This document shows positions 23,048-42,269 of a DNA stretch of 64,000 nt, one piece after another. Both the position numbers and the translations under genes were made by a program. This DNA comes from an uncultured virus (IMG/VR IMGVR_UViG_3300042888_001173) (Duplodnaviria > Heunggongvirae > Uroviricota > Caudoviricetes), in the IMG/VR virus record IMGVR_UViG_3300042888_001173, one strand, 5' to 3'. Each line of letters opens with the position of its first letter. Position 1 is the first letter of the stretch. The notes beneath the pieces were generated by a model. The model ran no database searches. It saw only the letters and a program-made list of their open reading frames with translations, and had not been told where the DNA came from.

Positions 23048-23053
23048 ATAAAG

Positions 23054-23585: not shown

Positions 23586-23647
23586 TTTTTTCTTTCAGTT
23601 TATATGCGTACTTATGTCTTTTAGACAAAAAGACTGTTACAGTTTTA

Positions 23648-24226: not shown

Positions 24227-24230
24227 AATT

Positions 24231-24304
24231 TGGAGCGGGGTAACAGAATCGAACTGTCCGCATCAGATTGGAAATCTGAGGTATTACCACTATACGAACC
24301 CCGC
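24231..24304 (-). tRNA. tRNA-Gly(TCC)
   Basis: TCAGA-TTTCCAA-TCTGA, U73 discriminator, CCA. Confidence 0.93.
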
Positions 24305-24318
24305 ATTGTTATTTCTAT

Positions 24319-24504
24319 TTATTCGTCGTCTTCTGGAGGATTGGCCAAAGGTGAAGTTGAAGGCTTTTTCTTAGACCACATTGAATATGATTCTCCTTCG
24401 ACCCTACCACTTTGATTTGGTTTTAGTTGTTGAACTACACCACCTTTGGCTAGAAACTCAGCCATCGCTGCTTCTGTTGCCGCTTGATTTTCTGCTTTTG
24501 TCAT
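24319..24504 (-). CDS. small hypothetical protein
   Basis: 61 aa, EFLAKGG.V motif. Confidence 0.65.
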   Translation of the reverse strand: MTKAENQAATEAAMAEFLAKGGVVQQLKPNQSGRVEGESYSMWSKKKPSTSPLANPPEDDE

Positions 24505-24539
24505 TGTTGCCTTTTATAAAAAATTTGGTAGAAAACTGA

Positions 24540-25136: not shown

Positions 25137-25149
25137 AAATTTAAAAAAT

Positions 25150-25226
25150 TGGTCGGAGTACAAGGATTCGAACCTTGGACCCCCTGGTCCCAAACCAGGT
25201 GCGCTACCAGACTGCGCCACACTCCG
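25150..25226 (-). tRNA. tRNA-Pro(TGG)
   Basis: CCTGG-TTTGGGA-CCAGG, CCA. Confidence 0.95.
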
Positions 25227-25228
25227 AA

Positions 25229-25378
25229 TTAATTGGGAATCATATGAGGAACATAGGGCACTGCTCTAGGACCGTATCTCTGTTGCAGAAGCTTCATTGC
25301 TTCCTGTGCTGTTTCTGCACCAACACGATCCTTGAATTCTTTGCCGTTGACTCTGATTGTTGCTTCAAATAATTTCAT
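25229..25378 (-). CDS. small hypothetical protein (49 aa, MKLFEATIRV...)
   Basis: ORF lying between two tRNAs. Confidence 0.55.
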   Translation of the reverse strand: MKLFEATIRVNGKEFKDRVGAETAQEAMKLLQQRYGPRAVPYVPHMIPN

Positions 25379-25383
25379 AATAT

Positions 25384-25459
25384 TGGTTGCAGGAGTCGGA
25401 GTCGAACCGACGATCTGAAGCTTATGAGACTTCCGAGATACCACCTTCTCCATCCTGCG
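25384..25459 (-). tRNA. tRNA-Met(CAT), initiator-like
   Basis: C1:A72 mismatch; anticodon arm GAAGT-CTCATAA-GCTTC. Confidence 0.9.
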
Positions 25460-25462
25460 ATA

Positions 25463-25575
25463 ACTTTATTAAAACAAACTAAGGCATATTAAAAGTTATA
25501 GCTATGCTAAAGAGCTCCGGGGAAGCCAAACCTAATCAAGTATTTCTACAAGATTCTAATTTGTTCTAATAAAGT
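25463..25575 (-). ncRNA. long-stem/variable-loop cassette A
   Basis: 20-bp stem ACTTTATTAGAACAAATTAG / TTAGTTTGTTTTAATAAAGT with G-U pairs on the minus strand. Confidence 0.6.
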
Positions 25576-25779
25576 GTCCGGCTACTTACACCACATAAGC
25601 CCCGAACTGAGCGGTTACTCTGTCCATAACATTTATTCTTCTGGAAAGGTGCTAAACCTCACCCAATGCGTTCTAGTATCCCTTAACTCAGAGAACTAAT
25701 GGTCATAGCATTGAATACCCGGCGCTCTCTATGGTGACTGCCCCACCCCCGTTTATTACGTGTACGGGATCACGGGTTT

Positions 25780-26352
25780 TTAAACTAAACCTTCTGATTG
25801 CAATGTTGCCACTACTTCTTCACTGAGTGGAATCTCTGTTTTGATATTTAACTCAAGTACTTCATCGTTGAGTTTCTGCTTTTGTTTCTTGAGATTTTTA
25901 ATCTCTGTACTAATCACATCTAGCTGTTCGTGACCGATGACATTAGTAGACACTGTGTCACTAAATCCATAGATACGGCTACGGCTACTTTCGCTCTTGT
26001 CGTTGCGAATCTTGTCCAACTTACCGTTGATCACGGCAAGATTAGTTACAGGATCTACTACAAGACCTTCAAGTTGAGCAACACGTTTGTCCACAAAGGC
26101 AGCAGTGGCCAATTTCAAATCAATGCCGCTTTGTGCGTTGGCACTGCCCACAAGACCACGAATGTTATACAAGGCCAACAGCAGGCGTTGTCTCCGACTG
26201 TCGTTGTTAAACAGCGTATCGTTGGCATTCTTTAGTTCTACTGCTACATCTTGAAATTCATTGAGATCAATCGATGTTGTGATTTTAATGCCCTTGATAG
26301 CATCATTGATGCTGTTTTGTAGGGCGCTGGCTTTTCTAAGTGAAATATTCAT
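25780..26352 (-). CDS. coiled-coil hypothetical protein
   Basis: 190 aa from MNISLRKA. Confidence 0.7.
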   Translation of the reverse strand: MNISLRKASALQNSINDAIKGIKITTSIDLNEFQDVAVELKNANDTLFNNDSRRQRLLLALYNIRGLVGSANAQSGIDLKLATAAFVDKRVAQLEGLVVDPVTNLAVINGKLDKIRNDKSESSRSRIYGFSDTVSTNVIGHEQLDVISTEIKNLKKQKQKLNDEVLELNIKTEIPLSEEVVATLQSEGLV

Positions 26353-26581
26353 CTCGTTGTCCTTTACGTTTTTTTGGTAATTTATTAATATAATCTTTAT
26401 AGGTATACTTGCCTTCTTCAATCTCTCGAAGTGCTGTAGAAATAAATGTTTTGCCTGGTTCAGCGACTTTGGGCATTGAACCGTTTTTTAACTCTCGGGC
26501 TCGCTGACTGGCAACTAGTACCAAGTCAAACCTATTGCCTATCTGTTCTACTGCTAATTCTGATGTTAATCTTGATGTCAT
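26336..26581 (-). CDS. rpoZ: RNA polymerase omega subunit
   Basis: AVEQIGNRFDLVLVASQRAREL...ALREIEEG. Confidence 0.92.
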   Translation of the reverse strand: MTSRLTSELAVEQIGNRFDLVLVASQRARELKNGSMPKVAEPGKTFISTALREIEEGKYTYKDYINKLPKKRKGQRDEYFT

Positions 26582-26599
26582 ATTTTCCTCAGGTTAAAA

Positions 26600-26826
26600 A
26601 ACGGTTCAGTGAAAGGTCAAGTAAAAGACTGGACAATGTGCAAATAACAATGCTCAATATACAATCCACAGGGGTCACTATATTTCCGGTAATCAATAAA
26701 CAAATATCTTTTGGGGCCGGAACACAATGACACGGATACTTTTTCAGAGTATTTGGAGTTAAGTTCCATTTGGCATGAAGCCAAACAGTAGTGTCTTCTC
26801 TCATCTACCTTTCACTTTGCCGGTTG
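26600..26826 (-). ncRNA. candidate structured RNA upstream of rpoZ
   Basis: Closing stem AGTGAAAGGT/ACCTTTCACT with internal hairpins; own promoter. Confidence 0.55.
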
Positions 26827-26848
26827 TGTATTGCTACACAACAAAACT

Positions 26849-26877
26849 ATTATAGCACTATACAAGATGTTTGTCAA
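26849..26877 (-). promoter_or_regulatory. sigma70 consensus promoter
   Basis: TTGACA-17bp-TATAAT. Confidence 0.85.
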
Positions 26878-26893
26878 CATCTTTTGACTATAT

Positions 26894-26967
26894 TGGTGCC
26901 CCTACACAGAATCGAACTGCAAACTGCGGATTACAAAACCGCCGTTATACCATTTAACTATAAGGGC
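26894..26967 (-). tRNA. tRNA-Thr(TGT)
   Basis: Loop TTTGTAA, CCA. Confidence 0.9.
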
Positions 26968-26973
26968 AATGCT

Positions 26974-27049
26974 TGGTGGAGGATAACGGATTCGAACCGT
27001 TTGCTCCTGGTTGCAAACCAGGTGTGTTAGCCAAGTATACCAATCCCCC
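26974..27049 (-). tRNA. tRNA-Ala(TGC)
   Basis: CCTGG-TTTGCAA-CCAGG, G3:U70, CCA. Confidence 0.93.
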
Positions 27050-27055
27050 AATATT

Positions 27056-27346
27056 TCACTTACCTTCGTTGAGTTTATACTCTTGAAGTTTTTCTTTAAA
27101 TGCTTCTTCGGTTAGTCCGTGCCAACCGATGCACTTGCCGGTTGGCGAACGACCGCAACCGCAAGATCCGATTTTACTTTCATCTTCTTTTACTCGTACT
27201 TGCATAGTATCAATCCTGTTAAATTCTTCATCTTCTCGAACTGCATCTTGCACTTCTTGAGGACTCTTGCGAAAAATTGTATCCCATCTATTGTCAAACT
27301 CACGCTGGCTGACACTAAAGGGTCTTGCTTTAGATCCCTTGCTCAT
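27056..27346 (-). CDS. small protein with CDGSH-like Fe-S motif
   Basis: CGCGRSPTGKCIGWH. Confidence 0.65.
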   Translation of the reverse strand: MSKGSKARPFSVSQREFDNRWDTIFRKSPQEVQDAVREDEEFNRIDTMQVRVKEDESKIGSCGCGRSPTGKCIGWHGLTEEAFKEKLQEYKLNEGK

Positions 27347-27347
27347 A

Positions 27348-27560
27348 TCAACTTCCTGAAGATACGGTCCCAGATGCATGGGTGGTAAAATTACCATTGC
27401 CCGGTTTGCGTGTTTCACGCTTGGGTTGAACAGCGGCACATAGCTCTGCATCAATCATGGCACGTTTCCACTCACCTCGCTTGTGAGGATCTAGAACTCT
27501 ACTCATTGCTAGACTTGCTTTAGTCAAAGATGACATCTTGTAATTTGGACCTGGTTTCAT
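27348..27560 (-). CDS. hypothetical protein
   Basis: 70 aa, AAGGA SD. Confidence 0.65.
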   Translation of the reverse strand: MKPGPNYKMSSLTKASLAMSRVLDPHKRGEWKRAMIDAELCAAVQPKRETRKPGNGNFTTHASGTVSSGS

Positions 27561-27581
27561 TATGTTTCCTTTATTAAAATC

Positions 27582-27785
27582 TGGTTGCTCTGACGTCCCC
27601 CGGCGGTAATTATAGTACAGAAAGATATGACGCTATCATACCTCTCACTCGTACCTTCCACCCGCTTCCCGACAGGGACCGTTCTCGCATTGCTAGCGGC
27701 CTTTGGGTTTAAAGACTACCACCCGTAGTTGTCACACTACTTCTCATCGTGCGGGTCACACTATCCGAAGACACTCGGAACGTTC
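27582..27785 (-). ncRNA. candidate ~200-nt structured RNA ending in ACCA
   Basis: GC-rich non-coding block with several hairpins directly 3' of tRNA-Ser. Confidence 0.5.
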
Positions 27786-27873
27786 TGGCGGAGCATGTAG
27801 GAATCGAACCTACTCACCACTTGCGCAGTGACAGATTAGCAATCTGTTGCCTTAACCGGTCGGCCAATGCTCC
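27786..27873 (-). tRNA. tRNA-Ser(GCT)
   Basis: ACAGA-TTGCTAA-TCTGT, long variable arm, GCCA end. Confidence 0.95.
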
Positions 27874-27874
27874 A

Positions 27875-28015
27875 TTATCTTGTTGCTTTACGTAGTAATT
27901 TATACCAGTAATATCTCACACCACGCCAAGTCGGCGTAAAATTCCAATTGACAGCAAACCCCACTTTGTTAGGAATATTTCGGTATGCCTGGTCTATAAT
28001 TTCTTTGGGTATCAT
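27875..28015 (-). CDS. small hypothetical protein (46 aa, MIPKEIIDQAY...)
   Basis: Read manually, between tRNAs. Confidence 0.45.
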   Translation of the reverse strand: MIPKEIIDQAYRNIPNKVGFAVNWNFTPTWRGVRYYWYKLLRKATR

Positions 28016-28034
28016 ACAGTCTTCTTTCTACTAG

Positions 28035-28109
28035 TGGTACCTGGTCACGGTTTCGAACCGCGGACCCTCTCGGTGTAAACGAGACGCTCTACCCCTGAGC
28101 TAACCAGGC
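28035..28109 (-). tRNA. tRNA-Val(TAC)
   Basis: TCTCG-TTTACAC-CGAGA, CCA. Confidence 0.95.
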
Positions 28110-28119
28110 AAAATTCTTT

Positions 28120-28206
28120 ACCATATTGAAACACACTAACTACCACGGTATGTACTAAAGTTCAATGAACCGTTACAACCCTATCTTTAATATGTTTCAA
28201 TATGGT
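28120..28206 (-). ncRNA. long-stem/variable-loop cassette B
   Basis: ACCATATTGAAACATATTAA / TTAGTGTGTTTCAATATGGT; begins with the ACCA of tRNA-Leu. Confidence 0.65.
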
Positions 28207-28286
28207 GCGCAAGGAGAGACTCGAACTCTCAATCCTTTCGGCAATGGCTTCTAAGACCATCGTGTATACCATTCCACCACTTGCGC
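28203..28286 (-). tRNA. tRNA-Leu(TAG)
   Basis: ATGGT-CTTAGAA-GCCAT, variable arm, CCA. Confidence 0.95.
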
Positions 28287-28339
28287 AAAATCTTACTTTA
28301 AATTTTTAATGAACATTACTAATTGCTTAGTATGTAACT

Positions 28340-28368
28340 ATTATATAGTCATTACGTTATCTTGTCAA
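28340..28368 (-). promoter_or_regulatory. sigma70 consensus promoter
   Basis: TTGACA-17bp-TATAAT. Confidence 0.85.
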
Positions 28369-28389
28369 CAGTTATTTTAAAATATTTTT

Positions 28390-28411
28390 TGGTGCCGTCC
28401 TTAGGATTGAA
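28390..28411 (-). pseudogene. tRNA 3'-end remnant fused to the end of a CDS
   Basis: TTCAATCCTAAGGACGGCACCA (T loop, acceptor strand, CCA). Confidence 0.55.
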
Positions 28412-28964
28412 TTTCATTTGTTATTAGATCCTCAAGTTTTGGATTACCATTAAATCTAATGCATACTGTTATTCTAGGATTATTAAAATCTACATTCACA
28501 ATATTATGTGGGATTGAACTGTTTACTAATGTCCATTCATTCTTGCCTTCTAGTTCTGTAGCAAGACATACATCATCTTCTTTAAAATAATAAGCATCTG
28601 CTACTTTAGGAATAACATTTGATTTTGTATTATAAAAACACATCCTTGTCCCTTCAAACCCCACGAGAGGTAAGTTGAAGCTTGCATATCTCAATGTTGA
28701 TTTACCATCAGCATGAATGGCCTGGGAATACGTGTGTTTAAATATTGAAAAATATTCAATCGGTGGAAATTTTAGTTTACTAACTAGCAACGAACTAAGT
28801 TTTAATATTTCTAAATCTTTATAAAAATCTTTTTTAAAATACATCATATATAAAGGACTAGACAATTGTTCAAAAATTTTATATTTTGGTATGAATTCTT
28901 TCAAAAAATAGTTAGTCCAATATACATTATCTATTTCTGGAAAGTGTTTATAAAAGTTTTGCAT
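28401..28964 (-). CDS. putative Fe(II)/2OG-type oxygenase (family B)
   Basis: IHAD...IPHNIVN...RITVCIRF; AT-rich. Confidence 0.6.
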   Translation of the reverse strand: MQNFYKHFPEIDNVYWTNYFLKEFIPKYKIFEQLSSPLYMMYFKKDFYKDLEILKLSSLLVSKLKFPPIEYFSIFKHTYSQAIHADGKSTLRYASFNLPLVGFEGTRMCFYNTKSNVIPKVADAYYFKEDDVCLATELEGKNEWTLVNSSIPHNIVNVDFNNPRITVCIRFNGNPKLEDLITNEIQS

Positions 28965-29009
28965 GTTGGTATTTATTAATTATGTAGAGTTCTAAGAGTC
29001 CAACTTAGT

Positions 29010-29084
29010 TGGTGCAACCTCTAGGAATCGAACTCCTATTCGCACTTTGGAAGAGAGCTGTATTCTCTATTATACAAAGGCGGC
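29010..29084 (-). pseudogene. degenerate/chimeric tRNA
   Basis: 3' 24 nt match tRNA-Phe (1 mismatch); acceptor, T and anticodon stems mispaired. Confidence 0.7.
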
Positions 29085-29088
29085 AATG

Positions 29089-29652
29089 TTATGCAATAAT
29101 TGCTAAATTTTTATAACGTTTGAGACTTTTTTCTATCAGCGTCTGATGCCTTGCTGTATCAATAAATCCTCTAATATAGATAATCTTTCTGCCCGGATCA
29201 TCCTTGAGCATGTGTAGCCCTGCTGTGGTATTTAAAAGATAACAACAAGGCACAGATGGCAATTCTGCTAACTTAAACGTGCCTCCACTTTTAACATAAA
29301 GTACATCAGTGGACCCTTCTAGGACTAGACGATACCCTGCAGGTTCGTTATCTAAAATATTAGTGTATTCTCCTTCTTCAAATTTCATATTTGGATATAC
29401 ATCGTAATGAGGTGACACAGCTTGTCTTTGCTCTTTATAATATACATTTGTTACTTTGCTTATAGGCAACTGATCTAGTACAGATTTTAAAGTATCATCA
29501 ACTGTTTCAGTAATTCTAGAAGTATCCCAATACTGTTGATACTCTGCAGTTTTTATGTAGGTTAGGTTGTTGATGACGTTAATTGTAGACTGTATTTTTG
29601 ATGTATCAATCTTTGGAATTTCAATATCAATTGGAAGGAATAATATGTTCAT
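29089..29652 (-). CDS. putative Fe(II)/2OG-type oxygenase (family A)
   Basis: MNILFLPIDIEIP, PHYD...LH...RK, C-terminal H..LIEKSLKRYK. Confidence 0.55.
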   Translation of the reverse strand: MNILFLPIDIEIPKIDTSKIQSTINVINNLTYIKTAEYQQYWDTSRITETVDDTLKSVLDQLPISKVTNVYYKEQRQAVSPHYDVYPNMKFEEGEYTNILDNEPAGYRLVLEGSTDVLYVKSGGTFKLAELPSVPCCYLLNTTAGLHMLKDDPGRKIIYIRGFIDTARHQTLIEKSLKRYKNLAIIA

Positions 29653-29690
29653 ATAATATTTATTAAATTCCACCATTCTCGCATTTGTCT

Positions 29691-29766
29691 TGGTGCAACC
29701 TCCAGGAATCGAACCTGGTTCAACGGTTCTTCAAACCGCCGCTATGACCACATCAGCTAAAGTTGC
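29691..29766 (-). tRNA. tRNA-Phe(GAA)
   Basis: GCGGT-TTGAAGA-ACCGT, CCA. Confidence 0.92.
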
Positions 29767-29767
29767 A

Positions 29768-30172
29768 TTAATCCTTTATAGTAGTATCAACTACATCAAC
29801 ACTGACACTTTCGGAATAGTATCCATTGCTGGAACCATACCACCGAACAGTTACAAATCCCTTGCGTGTAGCAAACTTGTAAAATGTCCATGTGTAAGAC
29901 TCGTCTCCTGTAGCTTCACCTTCATAGTCAGAAACTTCTTCAGCTTCAACTAGTGGTGCTCCCACAAGGTCATCGAGGTCACCACATATGTCTTCTATGT
30001 AAACACTTTCGCAACAATCTTGGTGATGTTGGAATCTTACATAGTTTGTCTTGGACAGATACAGTGTCAATACTGAGTCGTCTGCTTCTGCCTTGTACAA
30101 TGATCGTCCTAGTAATTCTTCGAACTTACGAACAGATCCCTTTAATGTGTTTAATATTTTTACTTGTTCCAT
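29768..30172 (-). CDS. hypothetical phage protein
   Basis: HHQDCCESV, WTFYK, RWYGSSNGYYSE. Confidence 0.75.
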   Translation of the reverse strand: MEQVKILNTLKGSVRKFEELLGRSLYKAEADDSVLTLYLSKTNYVRFQHHQDCCESVYIEDICGDLDDLVGAPLVEAEEVSDYEGEATGDESYTWTFYKFATRKGFVTVRWYGSSNGYYSESVSVDVVDTTIKD

Positions 30173-30188
30173 GATATTTCTACTTTGT

Positions 30189-30262
30189 TGGGTTGAACCG
30201 GGGAATCGAACCCTCTCTAACTGTTTCACAGACAGTTGTGCAGCCACTACACTAGGAACAAC
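30189..30262 (-). tRNA. tRNA-His(GTG)
   Basis: ACTGT-CTGTGAA-ACAGT, G-1:C73; two U-U mismatches in the acceptor stem. Confidence 0.85.
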
Positions 30263-30268
30263 ATTGAT

Positions 30269-30436
30269 CTATGTTTTAATCTTCTCCAATGCATCTTTAC
30301 GCATTAGAAATTTTCTATCTTGAATGGTCTTGCTGACCAACAGGTACTCAATGCCGTCAATTACTTGTACAGCCTTGGGATCATTACAGACCACTCGCTC
30401 ATTGTTGAATCTATTTTTAAATGTAATTGTTTTCAT
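30269..30436 (-). CDS. small hypothetical protein (55 aa, MKTITFKNRF...)
   Basis: Read manually; AAGGA SD. Confidence 0.6.
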   Translation of the reverse strand: MKTITFKNRFNNERVVCNDPKAVQVIDGIEYLLVSKTIQDRKFLMRKDALEKIKT

Positions 30437-30452
30437 AGCATTTTCCTTTATA

Positions 30453-30529
30453 TGGCCGGACCGGAGAGATTCGAACTCCCAACCTCAAGTTTCGAAGACT
30501 TGCTTTCTATCCAATTGAATTACGGTCCG
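30453..30529 (-). tRNA. tRNA-Arg(TCG)
   Basis: CAAGT-CTTCGAA-ACTTG, CCA. Confidence 0.92.
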
Positions 30530-30536
30530 ATAAATT

Positions 30537-30610
30537 TGGCAGAGGGTAAAGGAATCGAACCTTTAATAGCGGAATCAAAATCCGCGGTTATACCATTTAA
30601 CTAACCCCCA
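30537..30610 (-). tRNA. tRNA-Gln(TTG)
   Basis: GCGGA-TTTTGAT-TCCGC, GCCA end. Confidence 0.92.
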
Positions 30611-30618
30611 ACAGAAAC

Positions 30619-30694
30619 TGGTCTCCCTACTAGGATTCGAACCTAGACCACACGGCCCCAAACCGCGGATGCAACCAGATAACACTTTAGAGAG
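30619..30694 (-). tRNA. tRNA-Pro(TGG), second divergent copy
   Basis: CGCGG-TTTGGGG-CCGTG, CCA. Confidence 0.9.
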
Positions 30695-30701
30695 ATAATT
30701 G

Positions 30702-30903
30702 AATTTGTAAGTAGTAGAGCCACTTTAATCTCTACCATTCACCCGATTGCACTGGTCCGGACGGGAGGTGGTACATCACTTGGAATACTTGACATAGGTG
30801 CTCCGCTGCTTTTACGGGACTCGAACCCGCCCTACTTTTGCACTAGGTTGACCTTCGAAGAATCTTCCTAGCGAGTCTTTCTCTTGCTGACACTTACAAA
30901 ACT
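30702..30903 (-). ncRNA. candidate ~200-nt structured RNA with internal T-loop
   Basis: Closing stem TTTGTAAGTG/TACTTACAAA, internal CGGG-TTCGAGT-CCCG. Confidence 0.6.
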
Positions 30904-30978
30904 TGGTGGTAACGGCTGGATTCGAACCAGCACCTTGCTCCGTATGAAGGAGGTGCACGACCATTATGCTACGTTACC
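30904..30978 (-). tRNA. tRNA with CAT anticodon (elongator Met or lysidine Ile2)
   Basis: Loop TTCATAC, paired G1:C72, CCA. Confidence 0.88.
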
Positions 30979-31063
30979 ATATAAAAACACACTCAAGTCC
31001 GCGGCTCGGAAGGCACTATACCCGCGATGATCTATGATCAGGCCTAATGTGTTTTTATATGGT
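30976..31063 (-). ncRNA. long-stem/variable-loop cassette C
   Basis: ACCATATAAAAACACATT / AGTGTGTTTTTATATGGT. Confidence 0.65.
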
Positions 31064-31168
31064 GTCGCTACCCTCTAGCGGTCAGGCCTACTCTTGCGAC
31101 TTCTCATCCTCCGGTCACGACATTGTGTATGACTAGTACACCTGTTTCGATCACATCTTCTGATACTA

Positions 31169-31253
31169 ACCATAGAAAAACACACTAGTCGGAAACGACT
31201 TAGAGACCTACTCGCCCACAGTCACGAAGGCTTCTAATGTGTTTGTCTATGGT
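31169..31253 (-). ncRNA. long-stem/variable-loop cassette D
   Basis: ACCATAGACAAACACATTAG / CTAGTGTGTTTTTCTATGGT; begins with the ACCA of tRNA-Lys. Confidence 0.65.
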
Positions 31254-31325
31254 AGGAGCACCGGGACTCGAACCCGGAACTGGCAGATTAAAAGTCTGCT
31301 GTGATAACCATTTCACTATACTCCC
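31250..31325 (-). tRNA. tRNA-Lys(TTT)
   Basis: GCAGA-CTTTTAA-TCTGC, CCA. Confidence 0.95.
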
Positions 31326-31328
31326 ATA

Positions 31329-31403
31329 TGGTCCACGCTCTGAGAATCGAACTCAGTTAGTCCGGTTAAGAGCCGGGTACTTCGCCACTAAAGTTTAGCG
31401 TGG
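31329..31403 (-). tRNA. tRNA-Lys(CTT)
   Basis: Loop CTCTTAA, CCA. Confidence 0.88.
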
Positions 31404-31506
31404 ATGGATCGTAAATATTTTCTTTTACGTGCCATCCAGGACCATACGGGGGTCTAGGATGACACTAGAGTTTACCTCGTTTCATGTCATTCTCCATTTT
31501 AAAAAT

Positions 31507-31580
31507 TGGTTCCCAGAGCAAGAATCGAACTTGCGAAGACCGGTTATCAGCCGATTATTATACCATTTAATTATCCGGGA
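31507..31580 (-). tRNA. tRNA-Ile(GAT)
   Basis: ATCGG-CTGATAA-CCGGT, CCA. Confidence 0.92.
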
Positions 31581-31584
31581 AAAT

Positions 31585-31674
31585 TGGCGGAAGTAGTAGG
31601 ATTCGAACCCACGGACCCTTTCGAGCCTTCAGTTTTCAAGACTGCTGCCTTAAGCCATGCTCAGCCATACTTCC
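31585..31674 (-). tRNA. tRNA-Ser(TGA)
   Basis: Loop CTTGAAA, long variable arm, GCCA end. Confidence 0.95.
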
Positions 31675-31742
31675 ATATTAGGTGCAGGGCTTCCACCTAC
31701 TCCCACATCGCTTTAAAGTCTGCGTGTCCAAGACTGGTTGAT

Positions 31743-31819
31743 TGGTACCCCTGGGCAGATTCGAACCGCCATCCAGCAGATTTTAAGTCTACCCGCACTA
31801 CCAATTAGCGTACAGGGGT
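31743..31819 (-). tRNA. tRNA with TAA anticodon (Leu), short variable loop
   Basis: GTAGA-CTTAAAA-TCTGC, 77 nt, CCA. Confidence 0.85.
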
Positions 31820-31823
31820 ATAT

Positions 31824-31901
31824 TGGAATAGGGAGTGGGATTCGAACCCACGGGTTTACAGTTTTGCAGACTGTTGCATTGGGCCTCTCTGCCATCCCTA
31901 T
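31824..31901 (-). tRNA. tRNA-Cys(GCA)
   Basis: ACAGT-CTGCAAA-ACTGT, U73, CCA. Confidence 0.93.
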
Positions 31902-31907
31902 ATGGTG

Positions 31908-31999
31908 TGGTACCAGCGGAGGGAATCAAACCCTCTCAAGAACGCTAATCTGGCGCTAAAAGTCTTATAAGGACTCTCTGACTGTCAAGTCTCGCTGGC
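31908..31999 (-). tRNA. atypical tRNA with TAT anticodon (Ile), long variable arm
   Basis: GCCAGCG/CGCTGGT+ACCA, GAGTC-CTTATAA-GACTT, 4-nt D loop. Confidence 0.7.
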
Positions 32000-32002
32000 A
32001 TA

Positions 32003-32076
32003 TGGAGCGGGATAGGAGAATCGAACTCCTGACTAAACCTTGGCAAGGTTTCGTTTGACCATTAAACTAATCCCGC
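32003..32076 (-). tRNA. tRNA-Gly(GCC)
   Basis: AAACC-TTGCCAA-GGTTT, TCCA end. Confidence 0.95.
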
Positions 32077-32083
32077 GGTATAT

Positions 32084-32158
32084 TGGTACACGATACGAGA
32101 ATCGAACTCGTCTTTCCGCCTTGAAAGGGCAGCGTCCTAACCGATAGACGAATCGTGC
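32084..32158 (-). tRNA. tRNA-Glu(TTC)
   Basis: CTGCC-CTTTCAA-GGCGG, CCA. Confidence 0.93.
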
Positions 32159-32166
32159 AAATTGTT

Positions 32167-32240
32167 TGGCGTACCTCCAGGGACTCGAACCCCGACGAAC
32201 AGTTTTGGAGACTGTGATGCTGCCATTACATTAGAGATAC
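32167..32240 (-). tRNA. tRNA-Trp(CCA)
   Basis: ACAGT-CTCCAAA-ACTGT, GCCA end. Confidence 0.93.
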
Positions 32241-32246
32241 ATTGTC

Positions 32247-32322
32247 TGGCTCCCCGAGTACGGATCGAACGTACGACATCTTCGTTAACAGCGAAGCGCA
32301 ACTACCTCTGTGCTATCGGGGA
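32247..32322 (-). tRNA. tRNA-Asn(GTT)
   Basis: CTTCG-CTGTTAA-CGAAG, GCCA end. Confidence 0.93.
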
Positions 32323-32328
32323 ATAAAC

Positions 32329-32404
32329 TGGCGCCTCGTAGGGGAGTCGAACCCCTGTATTCCGCTAGACAGGCGGATATAATAGACCGTTATATGAACG
32401 AGGC
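32329..32404 (-). tRNA. tRNA-Asp(GTC)
   Basis: TCCGC-CTGTCTA-GCGGA, GCCA end. Confidence 0.92.
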
Positions 32405-32410
32405 AAAACT

Positions 32411-32499
32411 TGGTGGAAGTGGTAGGATTCGAACCTACAATGTTTCTTATGTGGCGGATTTACAGTCCGTTGCCTTCAACCAATTCAGCGCACACTTCC
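32411..32499 (-). tRNA. tRNA-Tyr(GTA)
   Basis: Loop CTGTAAA, variable arm, CCA. Confidence 0.93.
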
Positions 32500-32507
32500 A
32501 TAAATTG

Positions 32508-32622
32508 TAAACACACTCTCCGCTATGCTTTTAGACAGCGTCAAGAGCTGAATGAAGAATGTGTGTATTAAAACATTCTAAACTACTTAGTCTGACTGTT
32601 CGTAAAGAATGCTTTAATACGC
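32508..32622 (-). ncRNA. two adjacent long-stem/variable-loop cassettes (F1 32508-32567, F2 32563-32622)
   Basis: ACACATTCT/AGAGTGTGT and GTATTAAAGCATTCT/AGAATGTTTTAATAC stems. Confidence 0.55.
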
Positions 32623-32726
32623 TAGGGTTTTTTATCTCACAAAAGAGACTTCATCGCCTAGGCCGCCCGTTTACAACTGTTTATCGTGTGTTGCGAGGAC
32701 CTCGTTTCCCCTACCACGTTGCAGTA

Positions 32727-32879
32727 CTAGCGGGCATTTGGCCTACTTTCCTGCTTGTTTATAGCTCGATGATACTGTGCCACACGTTTCACCTTATTAT
32801 GGATCAGTTTCAAAAACTGATCCTTAGTAAGAGTGTGCGTCACTGTCCATTCTGCTTCTTTAATCTTTTTCTCTGTCAT
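32727..32879 (-). CDS. small basic protein (50 aa, MTEKKIKEAEW...), first ORF after the attenuator
   Basis: AAGGAACA-ATG; read manually. Confidence 0.55.
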   Translation of the reverse strand: MTEKKIKEAEWTVTHTLTKDQFLKLIHNKVKRVAQYHRAINKQESRPNAR

Positions 32880-32892
32880 TGTTCCTTAAAAC

Positions 32893-32925
32893 AAAAAACC
32901 CCAGGAGTTTTAATTCCCAGGGTCC
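32893..32925 (-). terminator. intrinsic terminator of the putative attenuator
   Basis: GACCCTGGGA-loop-TCCTGGGGTT followed by TTTTGTTT. Confidence 0.8.
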
Positions 32926-32951
32926 TTGAAGTTTGCGGTGTATGTTTTACT

Positions 32952-33095
32952 TTACACTACGTCCTCCCGGACCCTTGAAATCTCTGGTGTACGATCATAT
33001 GATAAACTTCCACCATTAATCGATAACCAAGAGCAGGCTATTACACCTACCTGTTTGGGCATCGTATTAAACTGATGTCTGTTAAATGATTTCAT
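32952..33095 (-). CDS. putative leader peptide (47 aa) of the tRNA operon
   Basis: MKSFNRHQFNTMPKQVGVIACSWLSINGGSLSYDRTPEISRVREDVV*, between promoter and terminator; AAGGA upstream. Confidence 0.65.
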   Translation of the reverse strand: MKSFNRHQFNTMPKQVGVIACSWLSINGGSLSYDRTPEISRVREDVV

Positions 33096-33143
33096 TTGCT
33101 TTCTTTTTCCTTTTATAAACAGCACCTTGCTGTCTATGTTTTA

Positions 33144-33172
33144 ATTATACAGTTATTTAGTTCTCTTGTCAA
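33144..33172 (-). promoter_or_regulatory. sigma70 consensus promoter heading the main tRNA array
   Basis: TTGACA-17bp-TATAAT. Confidence 0.88.
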
Positions 33173-33296
33173 CCTCTATTTGCCGTTTTGGCAAAATAAA
33201 TTTTGACGCCTTCCTAACCAACTGTATGTATTGTAATGTCTTTTTATTTATATGTCAACAAAAATATGATCTGATTATGTGGCTTTTTTACCACAT

Positions 33297-33551
33297 TCAC
33301 TCAAATGTTGTTTCACCCGTGATCAAAATGTGTTTGCCGATTTCAAACAGACCCACACTTCCAGGGAGATCCATTGCTGCCACGTGTATCTGGACTTCTC
33401 CGCCGTCGTCGATTGAGCAGGCCACAAATTCTTTTATGCTATCGCTTTCTATTTCCGCTTTGATGAATTCAATCACTGCTAACATGGCTTTCTTTTGTTC
33501 TTGCTGTTGAATATCTTCTTTGCGTTTGCTGTTGATGCTGATGACTTCCAT
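33297..33551 (-). CDS. hypothetical protein
   Basis: 84 aa from MEVISIN, AGGA SD. Confidence 0.65.
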   Translation of the reverse strand: MEVISINSKRKEDIQQQEQKKAMLAVIEFIKAEIESDSIKEFVACSIDDGGEVQIHVAAMDLPGSVGLFEIGKHILITGETTFE

Positions 33552-33558
33552 GTGTGTC

Positions 33559-34152
33559 CTATAGTAATTGATCTGCGATACCAAAATCTAGTGCTTCTTG
33601 AACAGTCATATAAACGTCTGAAGCCGGTAACAATTTTGATTTTATCTTTGATGGTGTTAGATCCGTGGCCTGTTGCAGTATATTGATCATCTTTTGATTC
33701 AAGAATTCGTTTTCCTTCATTTCAGCCTTGAGGTCGTGAAACTTAATATCAGCGGCACTCCCAGAAAACTGATGACACATAATTCCTGTGTTGGCAGCTA
33801 GGTATCGTTCTCCTTTGGCGCCCGCAGCAAAAATCAAAAAGGCAGCACTCATTATACTGCCAACACCAATAGTTCTCACACTGTGTTTACTGCTCTGCAT
33901 GATGTCTATAAGAGCAAATGCTTGATATAGATCTCCCCCTGTGGAATTTACATAAAGGGTGAGTATTTTTTCCTTGACTTCGAGATTTTCATAAACAATC
34001 CATTTGATGCATTCCTCCACATTTTCAGCAGTGATTTCACCACCGAGATAGTGGATGGAATTGTCTAATAATTTTACGCCAATTCTATCACTAGCATTGA
34101 ACTCATCAATTTTCTTCAAGATCTGCTCCTTGGGATTACTATTACTTATCAC
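33559..34152 (-). CDS. clpP: ClpP-like protease subunit
   Basis: LYVNSTGG, GSIMSAA (Ser), IMCHQ (His), D.YMT..EA..FGI.D. Confidence 0.85.
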   Translation of the reverse strand: MISNSNPKEQILKKIDEFNASDRIGVKLLDNSIHYLGGEITAENVEECIKWIVYENLEVKEKILTLYVNSTGGDLYQAFALIDIMQSSKHSVRTIGVGSIMSAAFLIFAAGAKGERYLAANTGIMCHQFSGSAADIKFHDLKAEMKENEFLNQKMINILQQATDLTPSKIKSKLLPASDVYMTVQEALDFGIADQLL

Positions 34153-34178
34153 TGTGATAATTATAGCATAAGTTTATT

Positions 34179-34367
34179 CTAAAGCATATCTCGAAACATC
34201 TGATTTTTGCCCGCTTCGCCTAATTCCTGTGTAAAAATGGTGTTTACGTGCTGTAACATAGCACAGGCCATCATGAGTAGATCCTGCCGATCATCACACA
34301 TGAGTATTTGTTTTTCAATTGGCAACATCAATTCTGCCATTCTAGTCTGCATTTCGCTTCTATCCAT
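34179..34367 (-). CDS. hypothetical protein
   Basis: 62-aa ORF in operon. Confidence 0.6.
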   Translation of the reverse strand: MDRSEMQTRMAELMLPIEKQILMCDDRQDLLMMACAMLQHVNTIFTQELGEAGKNQMFRDML

Positions 34368-34818
34368 GGCGTTCCTTGGTCAACTCGCATATTAGCTGAA
34401 ACTGCTCGTAGGCTTTACGAACACCGTCGTGTTTCATCAATTTGTCTGCTTCATCCTGCATGGCTTTAATGCCAGCTTCTGCATGATCTCTAGAACTGCC
34501 GTAAGTTAGTGAGCATAGTTCATCACCAAACTCTTTGGCTAACTTTTCCCAGGCTTTTTTCTGCCCTAGAGTAATCGGAGTTCGTTGAGGTCGCATTTCG
34601 CTGGCTTTGCTAATTGCTCGACATATGGCATCTTCAGCAACTCTACCCGCGGCAATCATAGCCGCATAGTTAGGATCAATATTAAACCTACGACTACTGC
34701 CTCCGGGATAAGACATAACCAGGTGGTTACCTTTTGGAAAGCTGTCCAAAAAGTCGTTGTCATATTCTGCAACAGGCACATACCGTCGCCCAACTTTTTC
34801 ATAGTAAATTTTCTTCAT
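34360..34818 (-). CDS. hypothetical protein
   Basis: 152 aa from MKKIYYEK. Confidence 0.7.
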   Translation of the reverse strand: MKKIYYEKVGRRYVPVAEYDNDFLDSFPKGNHLVMSYPGGSSRRFNIDPNYAAMIAAGRVAEDAICRAISKASEMRPQRTPITLGQKKAWEKLAKEFGDELCSLTYGSSRDHAEAGIKAMQDEADKLMKHDGVRKAYEQFQLICELTKERHG

Positions 34819-35086
34819 AGGTTTCCCACGCTTTCTTTTCGTAGTTCCAATGTCTATTATCGTAGAAGTTAAAATGCACACAGTACCCAAACAGGCCAGC
34901 TTCAAAATCAAGGCCGGCGTGGTCTTGCCGTACAGTCCAACTAAAACTGAACGACACTAGAACACTTTCCCTAGTAACTTCTAGTTCAATGACCTTGTTC
35001 GTAAACGGAGTTGTGTAACTACGGCACCACAGATTATCAAAACGAGCACACCACGAGTTGCGGATGGTAAAGTTAAATGAGATCAA
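34799..35086 (-). CDS. hypothetical protein
   Basis: 95 aa, DHAG...YD.RHW. Confidence 0.65.
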   Translation of the reverse strand: MISFNFTIRNSWCARFDNLWCRSYTTPFTNKVIELEVTRESVLVSFSFSWTVRQDHAGLDFEAGLFGYCVHFNFYDNRHWNYEKKAWETYEENLL

Positions 35087-35508
35087 CTATATTCCTTATC
35101 TAGCTTAACGTTAGTCAATCCTGAAATTACCTGGAAGTTATCCCAGGCCATTTTAGCGGCTGGATTTGTTTCCAATTCACTGCTAGGTAATACTGCTTCC
35201 AACCAAATTTCCGGACGCCGGCGAGGATGAGCACCAAATTGGCGAGGTTGGTGCATCTTACCATCTGAGTAGAGCATAATACTCACACTACGGAATTTGT
35301 CTTCATCCTCTTTACTTTGAGAATCGTAATTGCCCCATTCGGGATTACTCATGCCGCCGTGACAATAACCTGACCAAATTCCACTCCACTGTTCATCATC
35401 TCGTGGATCAAAATCTGTACGAGTGATCAATACCAGTACATCGTCAATGTCAACACGGCCCTCAACAATGTCCAAAACACAACGGCTATAGCTAAGTCCA
35501 ATTTTCAT
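35083..35508 (-). CDS. hypothetical protein
   Basis: 141 aa. Confidence 0.7.
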   Translation of the reverse strand: MKIGLSYSRCVLDIVEGRVDIDDVLVLITRTDFDPRDDEQWSGIWSGYCHGGMSNPEWGNYDSQSKEDEDKFRSVSIMLYSDGKMHQPRQFGAHPRRRPEIWLEAVLPSSELETNPAAKMAWDNFQVISGLTNVKLDKEYS

Positions 35509-35789
35509 TTGTTTGAGTCCAAGTAAAATTCTGCCGACGCCAACATAGCTTCGGCCTGTTCTTGAGTTTTTGGCAACACTATTCTAGTGCCACGCTGGAT
35601 ATCATTCGCTTCATCTAACAGAGGAGAAATGTCATTGTCAAATATCTGTGCCATGGCATTCCATAAAAGCACACGTTCAATGGCAGTCATACCTGACGCA
35701 ATAGAGTCATCGTTGGGATCCTTGTCTAATCCAAAATCGTGTCGCCAGGTATAACACATCGAATTGATAATTTCTTCTCTAGTTTTCAT
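35505..35789 (-). CDS. hypothetical protein
   Basis: 94 aa. Confidence 0.65.
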   Translation of the reverse strand: MKTREEIINSMCYTWRHDFGLDKDPNDDSIASGMTAIERVLLWNAMAQIFDNDISPLLDEANDIQRGTRIVLPKTQEQAEAMLASAEFYLDSNK

Positions 35790-35790
35790 T

Positions 35791-36012
35791 TTATTCTTTG
35801 ATCTGACAGATATAATCCTGCTGATATTTTAGTTTGTTGTCAACGGCGAATCTAATACTTTCTTGCAGCTCAACACTGAGATCAATTCCTCGCGGAGTCA
35901 TCTTGGTTTGGTAAATCCCACGGATTGCATTTTGACAACTTTGAAGATTAGAGTATGTGCCTAAATGTGCCGGTGTTTGATTTAATCCTAAGAACAGCAG
36001 AATATATATCAT
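35791..36012 (-). CDS. hypothetical protein
   Basis: 73 aa after a promoter. Confidence 0.6.
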   Translation of the reverse strand: MIYILLFLGLNQTPAHLGTYSNLQSCQNAIRGIYQTKMTPRGIDLSVELQESIRFAVDNKLKYQQDYICQIKE

Positions 36013-40208: not shown

Positions 40209-42269
40209 TTACTTCGAGGTAGCTTTGTAGGTACCGTCCCAATCTTTTGGTAAATCTCTAGAGCGCATATCAGCTATACGCTCAATCCACAGTTCATAGT
40301 AGTGATCCATATTGCCGTCAAATTCACCAGTGAGTGTCTTGCATAATTCTATAGCGTCATCCCACTTTTGCTGCTTATAATAGGTCAACATACCGTTATG
40401 CATATCACGGGCAGTGTTCCATTTAACTGCTACAGTTTCATCAGGCATGTAGAATACAGTAAAAATATTAACACCAATGGTCTTGCCCTTGACTGCAATA
40501 CAGTCTAAAGGAATAGTAAAGTACTGATCGTTAACACGCTTCTCTGTGCTTTCACTGATAATGATTAGTTGTCCATAGTTCTTGGTTTGACTTTCTAGTC
40601 GTGCTGTTAAACTAACTGAGTCACCTAGTACATCATATCCAAATCGGTCTTTACTACCAATGTTACCGATTAGTGTAGGACCGGTGTTAATACCCAAACC
40701 CATACCTACACGTGGCTTTCCTTCTCGTTCAAGTTCGATGTTAAACAGTTCAACAGCATGAATCATTTCTAGTCCAGTGCGGACAGCAGCGTGAGCATGA
40801 TCAGGATCTTGAAGCTCTTGGATCGGAGCACCATGAACGTGCAGACTAGCATCACCAATGAACTTGATCAAGCATCCATTGTTGCGCAGTATAGGTTCAG
40901 CAATGGCAGTCATATAACGATTCATTGTTTGTGTAAATGCCACAACGTCATCACCATAGGTTTCACCTAGGCCAGTAAAGTTGCGCATGTCACTCATGAT
41001 GATGGTAAGGTCTTTCTTCTCTCCGCCTAGTTTAATAAAGCTAGGATCTTTTTGTAGGCGTTCAACAATTACAGGATTTACATAGCTGCCAAACTGTTTC
41101 TTAATCTGTGACTTTTGCAAGTACTCGCTTAAAAATTTGACACTATAAGCGTGAATGTATACCAGACTACAGCCAACAACAAACCAAGTGGCGTCCAATA
41201 GGATTCTGGAGTTTTCATATAGATAAGATATAGCGAAATGACTGCCGCCGAGAAAGACAACAACAGGAATAAAAGCATAGGTCCACCTTGATAAAAATAG
41301 TACTAGTAATCCAGCGGCCAGCAAGGCAATGATCTCAGCTTGGTCAGCCCAACCTGGACGCTGTATGTTGCTCTGCGTCATCATAGTGCCAATGACTGCA
41401 CCTTGTAGGTATTGTGGCCATACTTCACCTTTGGCTGTACTAACAGGGTTTACCAGACCAGCAGCACTGAGTCCAACAATAACAATACCGCCGTCAAATG
41501 ATTCAGGCAACTGCATGTAACTGTATTCTCTAGGCGTTGCTGACCAATCAATCCAAACACGACCTTCGTTGTCCGTTGGTACTTTGCCAAACTTAGGAAC
41601 ACGCACAGCTTCTACACCCATGTCACCAATCTTGACTTGGAACTTGGGATCCTTGGCAGCCACACGCAGTGTCTCTAATGCTAGACTAGGATGTAGTTTT
41701 TCTTGACTTAGTATGACCATGGGCATACGACGAACAACACCGTCTATCTCTGGAAATGTATTAACAATACCAACACCTGCTGCTAGACTTTCTTGCGGCT
41801 CCACATTACTAATCAATCCTGGATACTCAACAACTAGTCCCTTAGGATCCATGCCTATTACTTGTGCAGGTGTTCTATGAGTAATATTCTTTTGACGTTC
41901 ACTTCCTAGTGCTGGTAATACCACAGGATACTTCTTAAGTGTTTCACCTAGTACGGCATCCTTGCCAAAACGATCTTTCTCTGGCATTAGCACGTTAAAC
42001 ACAACCAGTCCGGCATCACGTCTATAAATCTCTTTAATGATATCAGCATACATGTCTCTAGGGAAAGGAAACTGTCCTAGCTTGTCTAGAGTTGCTTCAT
42101 CAATGTTGACTGTATAAACAGGAACATCGTTGGCAGGTTGACTAGTTACTAATGTGTCAAAATAACGTAGTCTTACGCTTTCAATAAAACTAGGATCTAC
42201 AAGACGGATGCCTAATACTAATGCTAGAGTGACCAATGCGGTCCAAGGGTTTAATAGTAGCTTTTTCAT
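40209..42269 (-). CDS. CHASE2-domain class III adenylate/guanylate cyclase
   Basis: VNIDEATL...FPFPR, DGVVRR (CHASE2), three TMs, SDMRNFT, KFIGDA, GDSV..ARLE. Confidence 0.92.
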   Translation of the reverse strand: MKKLLLNPWTALVTLALVLGIRLVDPSFIESVRLRYFDTLVTSQPANDVPVYTVNIDEATLDKLGQFPFPRDMYADIIKEIYRRDAGLVVFNVLMPEKDRFGKDAVLGETLKKYPVVLPALGSERQKNITHRTPAQVIGMDPKGLVVEYPGLISNVEPQESLAAGVGIVNTFPEIDGVVRRMPMVILSQEKLHPSLALETLRVAAKDPKFQVKIGDMGVEAVRVPKFGKVPTDNEGRVWIDWSATPREYSYMQLPESFDGGIVIVGLSAAGLVNPVSTAKGEVWPQYLQGAVIGTMMTQSNIQRPGWADQAEIIALLAAGLLVLFLSRWTYAFIPVVVFLGGSHFAISYLYENSRILLDATWFVVGCSLVYIHAYSVKFLSEYLQKSQIKKQFGSYVNPVIVERLQKDPSFIKLGGEKKDLTIIMSDMRNFTGLGETYGDDVVAFTQTMNRYMTAIAEPILRNNGCLIKFIGDASLHVHGAPIQELQDPDHAHAAVRTGLEMIHAVELFNIELEREGKPRVGMGLGINTGPTLIGNIGSKDRFGYDVLGDSVSLTARLESQTKNYGQLIIISESTEKRVNDQYFTIPLDCIAVKGKTIGVNIFTVFYMPDETVAVKWNTARDMHNGMLTYYKQQKWDDAIELCKTLTGEFDGNMDHYYELWIERIADMRSRDLPKDWDGTYKATSK

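Follow-up and report, generated by a model that had tools for sequence, protein, structure and literature searches.

The window (the whole stretch of DNA that we analyzed, 64,000 nucleotides from an uncultured virus of the Caudoviricetes, IMG/VR record IMGVR_UViG_3300042888_001173) carries a consensus promoter, a short leader frame, two hairpins that compete for one strand of the RNA, a second small frame (ORF2), a structured RNA that we will term element X, and a block of tRNA genes, in that order (Table 1). The coordinates of the parts of the leader, the switch, and the tRNA block are all given on the minus strand. A preliminary description of this DNA had reported a perfect TTGACA-17-TATAAT promoter, a 47-codon open reading frame (ORF), an intrinsic terminator after the ORF, and pairing of AGGGTCC-GG-GAGG with CTTC-AA-GGACCCT around an inner GTGTA/TACAC hairpin, and had interpreted these features as a leader-peptide attenuator that senses all of the amino acids and gates the tRNA operon. 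Each of the four features is confirmed (the pairing is that of the minimum free energy (MFE) fold predicted by ViennaRNA), and the comparative tests that we describe below support the interpretation. The description also had the tRNA array following the terminator directly. The order was right, but the two are not adjacent: ORF2 and element X lie between them, and the first tRNA gene, for tRNA-Tyr, starts at 32499.

Table 1. Features of the leader, the switch, and the downstream genes in the window, with the basis for each.
Feature	Position	Strand	Basis
Upstream promoter-like site, TTGACA-17-TACAAT	33258-33230	-	11/12 matches; in tandem with the main promoter
Main promoter, TTGACA-17-TATAAT	33172-33144	-	12/12 matches
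5'-terminal hairpin of the transcript, likely a stabilizer	33137-33115	-	MFE fold prediction and covariation
Leader ORF, 47 codons and TAA, all 20 amino acids	33095-32952	-	Open frame in relatives
Antiterminator hairpin	32975-32919	-	MFE fold and covariation
Intrinsic terminator hairpin and T tract	~32927-32888	-	13 pairs (32927-32894), then T6GT4
ORF2, second small ORF, 50 amino acids	32879-32727	-	AAGGA 4 nt before the ATG
Element X, conserved structured RNA	32722-32558	-	Covarying helices in relatives
First tRNA block, 19 tRNAs from Tyr to Phe, 17 amino acids	32499-29691	-	ARAGORN tRNA calls, promoter scan

The leader ORF encodes the peptide MKSFNRHQFNTMPKQVGVIACSWLSINGGSLSYDRTPEISRVREDVV (47 amino acids), which gene callers annotate as a hypothetical protein. 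The antiterminator hairpin at the end of the ORF has three tiers: a core of AGGGUCC (32975-32969) with GGACCCU (32925-32919), a middle helix of GAGG with CUUC, and an apical stem of GUGUA with UACAC. The stop codon of the leader (32954-32952) falls within the apical stem. The arms of the terminator are ACCCUGGGA and UCCUGGGGU, followed by U6GU4, and the 5' arm of the terminator is also the 3' arm of the antiterminator. Because both hairpins use GGACCCU, they are mutually exclusive. The RNA from 33137 to 32880 has a predicted folding energy of −75.3 kcal/mol (z = −4.9; none of 200 shuffled sequences was as stable), and its MFE fold contains the long antiterminator hairpin, not the terminator.

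We found 137 related loci in uncultured phages, with a promoter, an open frame of 44-53 codons, a strong hairpin, a weaker terminator that shares a strand with that hairpin, and a tRNA array on the same strand. The first set, with 57 unique frames and 58 distinct transcripts, comprises 76 loci from contigs of uncultured viruses, the longest of which is 383 kb. The second set, which was found from a closer sub-alignment and represents a second subfamily, comprises 61 further loci with 49 unique frames. Searching with the peptide gave 31 protein clusters, and a profile search gave 48 representatives (at 50% clustering, with E up to 0.001). The DNA is also present in lake-water sequencing runs, and one record (G001) has 100% identity to the window over this region. 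Among the GenBank phages, neither the region nor the peptide nor the switch has a relative that we could find; the only matches were distant ones to the tRNA-Tyr gene.

According to the preliminary description, homologues without the ORF or without the antiterminator pairing would speak against its interpretation, and on both points the comparison came out in its favor. The leader frame is open in 76/76 loci of the first set and in 61/61 of the second, and its ATG is invariant. (For the remaining five frames, the corresponding counts among the 57 unique sequences are 2, 0, 0, 5, and 0.) The surrounding features are also retained. In the first set, every one of the 76 loci has a promoter of the form TTGACx-17-TAxAAT at a distance of 47-67 nt ahead of the ATG, and the sequence of the spacer varies. 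A promoter is present in 59/61 loci of the second set and a terminator-like site in 61/61, and across the related loci the terminator was found wherever the downstream DNA is included. A tRNA array on the same strand lies 260-1030 nt downstream in 73 of the 76 first-set loci (the remaining three have 521 nt of downstream DNA or less), and in the second set, 56 of the 57 loci with at least 700 nt of downstream DNA have such an array there. (In part of the second subfamily, namely L210-L216, L220, L221, L247-L250, and others, the −10 hexamer ends just 6-10 nt before the ATG that we chose. Either the leader is nearly leaderless at these loci or the true start is elsewhere.)

Both of the competing stems are kept with compensatory changes, and the second set confirms this. 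We counted pairs on script-anchored arms, since in the switch region some rows of the MAFFT alignments are displaced by a column. RNAalifold, given the 58 distinct transcripts, selects the 5' hairpin and the antiterminator, with double changes in 15 of the 31 predicted pairs. The 5' hairpin occupies alignment columns 14-31 and has six pairs, three of which show many double changes (for example, CG 25, AU 14, and UA 14). The core of the antiterminator is paired in 350/350 cells among 50 distinct variants. Its first pair is AU in 34 variants, GC in 12, and GU in 4, and is never AC (P = 1.5e-8, Fisher's test, with relatedness ignored); its sixth pair is CG in 49 and UA in one; and one variant (L065) has the double change GGGUUC/GAACCC. 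The inner part of the hairpin has 42 different sequences, and all of them pair. Also, chimeras that join the 5' and 3' halves of the hairpin from different relatives are weaker than the natural hairpins (−21.2 vs −24.3 kcal/mol). The terminator exists in 13 distinct versions, with energies of −11.9 to −14.2 kcal/mol, and L071 has a double compensatory change.

The balance between the two hairpins is conserved as well. The mean energy is −24.3 kcal/mol for the antiterminator and −12.9 kcal/mol for the terminator, and the antiterminator is the more stable of the two in 50/50 variants. In the second set, the corresponding means are −24.6 and −13.3 kcal/mol, and the antiterminator is more stable in 45/45. 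The leader and the hairpin also keep their relative placement: in 50/50 variants, the frame traverses the 5' strand, and the first base of its stop codon falls 21-28 nt within the hairpin.

To model the effect of translation, we folded the window RNA with a ribosome masking successive codons. The predicted structure switches between codons 36 and 37: with the A site at codons 2-36, the antiterminator has a probability of at least 0.85, and with the A site at codons 37-48, the terminator has a probability of at least 0.95. The free window RNA folds into the antiterminator with a probability of 0.996, and in a cruder test, the free RNA does so in 51/58 relatives. (Ribosome masking across the 58 relatives was crude as well. 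Its key-pair index failed for variants in which an arm is shifted by one base, and the model wrongly let a ribosome at a late stop codon sit in a closed stem. For this reason, we rely on the masked folding of the window RNA and on the pair counts and energies in the two sets.) No 1:2 hairpin like that of the trp leader was found in the fold predictions for the window's leader RNA. So, unlike trp, the untranslated RNA is predicted to read through, and the default state would be on. The antiterminator has roughly double the stability of the terminator and is transcribed first, so the terminator should form only if the antiterminator hairpin is removed, and this would be accomplished most simply by a ribosome that finishes the frame. 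On balance, the leader is probably a translation-coupled attenuator.

In the subfamily that includes the window, the last sense codon is GTG, ATG, or TTG in 48/57 frames, followed by TAA, with GGAG or GAGG 6-7 nt upstream (32968-32952 in the window). This Shine-Dalgarno-like and start-stop arrangement might hold a terminating ribosome in that subfamily. We considered a start-stop parking site as a general feature of the switch and dropped it, since the last codons in the second subfamily also include GCG, AGT, ACG, and others.

What the attenuator might sense is suggested by the composition of its peptide. According to the preliminary description, all 20 amino acids are present by residue 38, and the ORF uses 34 distinct sense codons, including four for Ser, four for Arg, and ATA. 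We obtained the same counts (the last new residue is E38). The leader has no runs of regulatory codons, and most amino acids occur one to three times. The preliminary description allowed that finding all 20 amino acids in one sequence could be due to chance, and we agree. Among 47-residue windows from this phage's ATG-initiated ORFs of at least 100 amino acids, 237/13,616 (1.7%) contain all 20, and of random codon draws, 2.6% yield all 20 amino acids and 5.6% use at least 34 distinct codons. (By a hand count with standard wobble, 42 of the 47 leader codons can be read by the phage's 27 anticodons, but this is uninformative, as these anticodons cover most of the code.)

Among the relatives, the composition is retained far above what the null models give. 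All 20 amino acids are present in 54/57 unique frames of the first set (the others lack K, V, or C), in 45/49 unique frames of the second set (the other four lack C), and in 27/32 protein clusters (the other five lack C). Among distant representatives, whose median pairwise identity is 46%, the proportion is 34/44. (The 44 are what remained after we removed two long repetitive proteins and two frame-broken ones.) If sequences for these 44 are drawn from the pooled composition of the family, then the mean number with all 20 amino acids is 2.0 and the maximum in 5,000 runs is 8; if residues are shuffled within alignment columns, then the mean is 11.1 and the maximum in 2,000 runs is 20. For the 57 close relatives, we used a tree-aware simulation with per-column frequencies and a fitted rate. 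It reached 54 in 1/1,000 runs with the frame tree and in 0/2,000 runs with the whole-transcript tree.

The scarcer residues are informative in this respect. Cys occurs in 21 alignment columns and is absent from 5/44 sequences (15.7 expected), while His occurs in 11 columns and is absent from 0/44 (12.7 expected). Similarly, Tyr is absent from 1/44 (9.2 expected), as is Phe (9.4 expected). Judging from the alignment, these four residues wander between positions without being lost. Codon usage shows a similar excess: the number of distinct codons is above the expectation given the peptide in 57/57 frames, with a mean z of 1.67 under a null that used the window phage's codon usage for all of the frames. 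If the leader is a translation-coupled attenuator, then it is likely that its composition was selected for sensing all of the amino acids.

Downstream of the switch, ORF2 is the first element to be read if polymerase passes the terminator. A diverged homologue of ORF2 is present in L001 and in many other relatives, and in relatives that lack it, element X follows the terminator directly. ORF2 had no match in Pfam, PHROG, or Rfam. Element X is the most constant feature downstream of the switch: in most of the 76 loci, it comes after the leader (or ORF2) and ahead of the first tRNA, and it is about 165-210 nt long in the relatives. It has five covarying helices, including a long stem with up to five pair types, and its conserved single-stranded motifs include an AACGAGG loop, a GCACUUAAAACAU loop, AAACGGGCGG, and GGAUG. 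The inserts in the long stem differ among relatives, and some of them hold the T-arm-like sequence GGGGUUCGAAUCCCC. (In the window, a further hairpin extends beyond element X to about 32510.) An Rfam cmscan of positions 20000-36000 with E up to 1 reported only tRNAs and weak chance matches, none of them within 32500-33300, and a cmscan of six relatives with E up to 5 found no family for the leader, for a T-box, or for element X.

The window holds 29 tRNAs, and as the preliminary description stated for the wider tRNA region, these cover all 20 amino acids. The claim that the switch gates the tRNA operon would hold for the first 19 tRNAs (32499-29691) but not for later parts of the region, which have perfect promoters of their own. 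We found no minus-strand promoter-like site with 10/12 or more matches between 33144 and 29609, and the likely regulated unit is these 19 tRNAs, which are the only ones behind the switch. (Two tRNA calls in the region are unusual. ARAGORN identifies a 92-nt tRNA-Ile(UAU) at 31999-31908 on the minus strand, where cmscan has no tRNA match, so this tRNA may be atypical or interrupted by an insert. At 29013-29084, it is ARAGORN that makes no call, and cmscan reports a weak tRNA-like match.)

We propose that a ribosome-mediated transcription attenuator, one that senses all of the amino acids, precedes the main block of tRNA genes in this phage, and we consider this reading, taken as a whole, to be somewhat favored. 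Anatomy, conservation, covariation, the constraint on composition, and synteny were observed in silico; from these we infer that the leader is translated, in which direction the switch acts, and what triggers it in nature. Under this proposal, the sigma-70-type consensus promoter would start a transcript with a protective 5' hairpin and the 47-codon frame. The 5' half of the antiterminator would contain roughly the final ten codons together with the stop, and the 3' strand of the antiterminator would double as the 5' strand of the weaker terminator. Undisturbed, the RNA would fold into the antiterminator, and polymerase would continue into ORF2, element X, and the 19 tRNA genes. A ribosome that reaches the end of the leader would melt the antiterminator as the terminator is being transcribed, so that the terminator would form and transcription would stop. 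Conversely, if the ribosome is slowed upstream of about codon 37, or is absent, then the antiterminator would stay intact and transcription of the tRNAs would rise. Because the frame is maintained with every amino acid and with a surplus of distinct codons, a shortage of almost any charged tRNA should open the switch, and this would amount to demand-driven feedback on the supply of tRNA. Possible triggers are starvation, decay of the host's tRNA pool after host shut-off, or tRNA-cleaving defenses such as a host anticodon nuclease.

More broadly, phages with large sets of tRNAs might carry a pan-aminoacyl-tRNA sensor, that is, a leader selected to contain all amino acids and a wide range of codons, which reads the entire decoding pool and responds to a shortfall by raising the phage's own tRNAs and element X. 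We put this generalization forward tentatively, as something short of probable.

Several observations weigh against our proposal. First, the ribosome-binding site of the leader is weak: the sequence ahead of the ATG is purine-rich but has no clear GGAGG. Second, synonymous sites are conserved in blocks of the frame, and we can name no reason for it. In particular, the block GAUCGYACACCRGAGAUU (32994-32977; GAT CGY ACA CCR GAG ATT, encoding DRTPEI), which lies just upstream of the antiterminator, is near-invariant, including its synonymous sites. Candidate explanations are a binding site or a signal, either for pausing or in the nascent peptide. Third, the equilibrium folding model misbehaved for several variants in the set of 58 relatives. 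Fourth, some aspects of the composition are not as expected for a sensor of every amino acid. Members without Cys exist in each collection (1/57, 4/49, 5/32, and 5/44), so the rule of all 20 amino acids is not absolute. The codon diversity of the window's own leader is unremarkable (z = 0.34). Its first Glu is at codon 38, which is at the edge of the predicted sensing zone, and in a crude test, all 20 amino acids lie upstream of the boundary in 24/58 transcripts if the ribosome edge is placed at +12 nt and in 48/58 if it is placed at +8 nt.

Finally, some of the tRNAs would not need the switch. The tRNA region of the window contains perfect TTGACA-17-TATAAT sites at 28368-28340, 26877-26849, and 22896-22868, all on the minus strand. 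The first of these is 54 nt before the gene for tRNA-Leu(UAG) and has no leader frame, and from the sequence, parts of the tRNA set look constitutive. Also, a promoter with at least 10/12 matches lies between the terminator and the first tRNA in 14/59 distinct intervals from the relatives (L018, L026, L036, L056, L065, and nine others), either 8-9 nt or about 100 nt ahead of that tRNA. Given these promoters within the tRNA region and in the relatives, the gate would be only partial. The switch would gate part of the tRNA supply, and perhaps mainly ORF2 and element X, of which element X is the most constant target.

The alternative that survives best is an attenuator that reports only the global capacity for translation (the loading or movement of ribosomes), with the presence of all 20 amino acids being a side effect of another constraint. 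In its favor, the geometry of the switch would work with a stall of any kind and also in the complete absence of translation, members without Cys exist, E38 is located at the boundary of the sensing zone, and blocks of the frame are frozen at the nucleotide level. Against it, the composition is kept far above both the column-preserving and the tree-aware nulls, rare residues move and yet persist (across 21 columns for Cys and 11 for His), and codon diversity is over expectation in every one of the 57 frames. To our knowledge, no other constraint demands one of each amino acid. We consider this alternative to be unlikely.

Next, the terminated leader RNA of about 250 nt, or its peptide, could be a product that acts in trans, as a stable small RNA or a dual-function RNA. 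Stable RNAs lie within the tRNA cluster of phage T4. The covariation of the 5' hairpin, the strong fold of the leader (z = −4.9), the blocks that are conserved at the nucleotide level, including at synonymous sites, and the contigs from RNA libraries that cover the leader are all consistent with such a product. There is also a precedent, in that a Sinorhizobium attenuator RNA and its leader peptide are reported to act in trans (PMC6614838, PMC7298713). A role in trans would be compatible with attenuation. But as the free RNA is predicted to fold into the antiterminator (P = 0.996), the terminator that would release this RNA should be inefficient without a ribosome, and a trans-acting RNA explains neither why a frame runs through the 5' arm in every variant nor why all 20 amino acids are retained. 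Also, the leader has no match to any Rfam, Pfam, or PHROG family. As an explanation that replaces sensing, a trans-acting product has a low probability.

It is improbable that the leader is an ordinary gene for a small phage protein, with its own promoter and terminator and with a hairpin that is incidental or is a 3' structure that stabilizes the mRNA. Such a gene would account for the conserved frame, the invariant ATG, the 48 representatives from the profile search, and the annotation by gene callers as a hypothetical protein. But the frame does not evolve like an ordinary protein-coding gene: its three codon positions vary to the same extent (8.17, 8.30, and 9.10), and invariant residues are mostly frozen at their synonymous sites too (GAT, ACA, GAG, and ATT, each in 57/57). 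Furthermore, the C-terminus of the peptide shifts reading frame among relatives (SRVRE, CQGSRR, or YPGSQE) over the unchanged nucleotides GGGUCC. A plain terminator would be defeated by a competing hairpin that is twice as stable, and neither the strict synteny with tRNA arrays nor the constraint on composition is expected of an ordinary gene.

RNase III processing sites lie between the early genes of phage T7, and the long irregular hairpin could likewise be an RNase III-like site that splits the leader mRNA from the tRNA precursor without any switching, which would suit its roughly 20 pairs in three tiers with internal loops and its location between a coding unit and stable-RNA genes, but this is very improbable because it leaves the conserved strand-sharing terminator, the stop codon that is always within the hairpin, and the constraint on composition unexplained.

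RNA libraries offer weak evidence about the leader. Contigs from lake metatranscriptomes cover it in 4/4 runs, but these libraries may contain DNA. Contig X15 (record 2, 32845-33071) spans the terminator, though contigs cannot show the ends or the levels of transcripts. We did not count the following as evidence: in 4/4 RNA runs, the leader has a greater word depth than the DNA downstream, but contigs from relatives collect on the conserved leader; another contig (X18, record 26) ends in the U tract; and some parts have no cover.

Two observations hint weakly at a freshwater betaproteobacterium as the host. In one relative, a tmRNA gene lies about 2 kb upstream of the leader (L039:525-942, plus strand), and its best model is betaproteobacterial (92 bits). 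In another (L084), the whole module is on a 6-kb contig that was binned with a Polynucleobacter metagenome-assembled genome. Separately, the gene content of the window is unusual for a phage. It includes ThyX, two fatty-acid desaturases, a ClpP-like protease that adjoins the leader, a CHASE2 adenylate/guanylate cyclase, a curlin-repeat protein with CsgG, a ferredoxin-dependent bilin reductase, and a full Hsp70. (These genes are in the intervals 5887-6552, 14509-16625, 33559-34152, 40209-42311, 46796-48551, 49499-50179, and 51847-53748.)

In the literature that we searched, we found no published account of such a leader ahead of tRNA genes. The best-known relatives of the proposed mechanism are the leader-peptide attenuators of amino-acid operons, such as trpL, hisL, pheL, and leuL of E. 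coli and the multivalent thrL and ilvL. The theory of attenuation by such leaders is treated in PMC1183508. The preliminary description took the phage leader to have trp/his-type geometry. This was correct for the short promoter-proximal frame, the intrinsic terminator, the antiterminator that shares a strand with it and excludes it, and the placement of the stop codon. Also, as in the trp/his type, the position of the ribosome is predicted to select the structure, with a ribosome at the stop codon favoring termination. The hardware is that of a leader-peptide attenuator, but two defining features are absent: the phage leader has every amino acid instead of runs of one or a few regulatory codons, and it lacks the 1:2 (anti-antiterminator or pause) hairpin, so that the absence of translation should lead to read-through and not to termination. 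The phage leader is also long (44-53 codons), is carried by a phage, and precedes tRNAs and element X instead of biosynthetic enzymes.

Other short upstream frames report translation stress, including toiL, which precedes topAI-yjhQ (PMC12121999), and the vmlR leader (PMC9226507). As in our proposal, stalling on the short frame is reported to raise expression downstream. The stalling in those cases is attributed to antibiotics acting at particular codons, and toiL is described as acting via Rho and translation. In contrast, the phage leader has an intrinsic terminator, a constraint to contain all 20 amino acids, and tRNAs as its output.

The T-box riboswitch binds one specific uncharged tRNA directly, without a ribosome. 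Like the proposed switch, the T-box monitors the charging of tRNA and controls genes for the translation apparatus by a choice between a terminator and an antiterminator. Unlike a T-box, the phage leader would read the whole pool of charged tRNAs through the ribosome, and cmscan found no T-box match in it.

If our proposal is correct, then it would explain how large phages match the supply of tRNA to demand, and it would tie phage tRNA arrays to current work on defenses that target tRNAs. It would also provide a compact and portable sensor of overall decoding capacity. Because the promoter and the terminator are of the standard bacterial type, the proposal can be tested directly in a laboratory strain or in a defined cell-free system. 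In the textbook mechanism of leader-peptide attenuation, the leader senses one or a few amino acids and controls the enzymes for their biosynthesis. In this case, a virus appears to use that hardware to sense the entire pool of charged tRNAs and to control tRNA genes.

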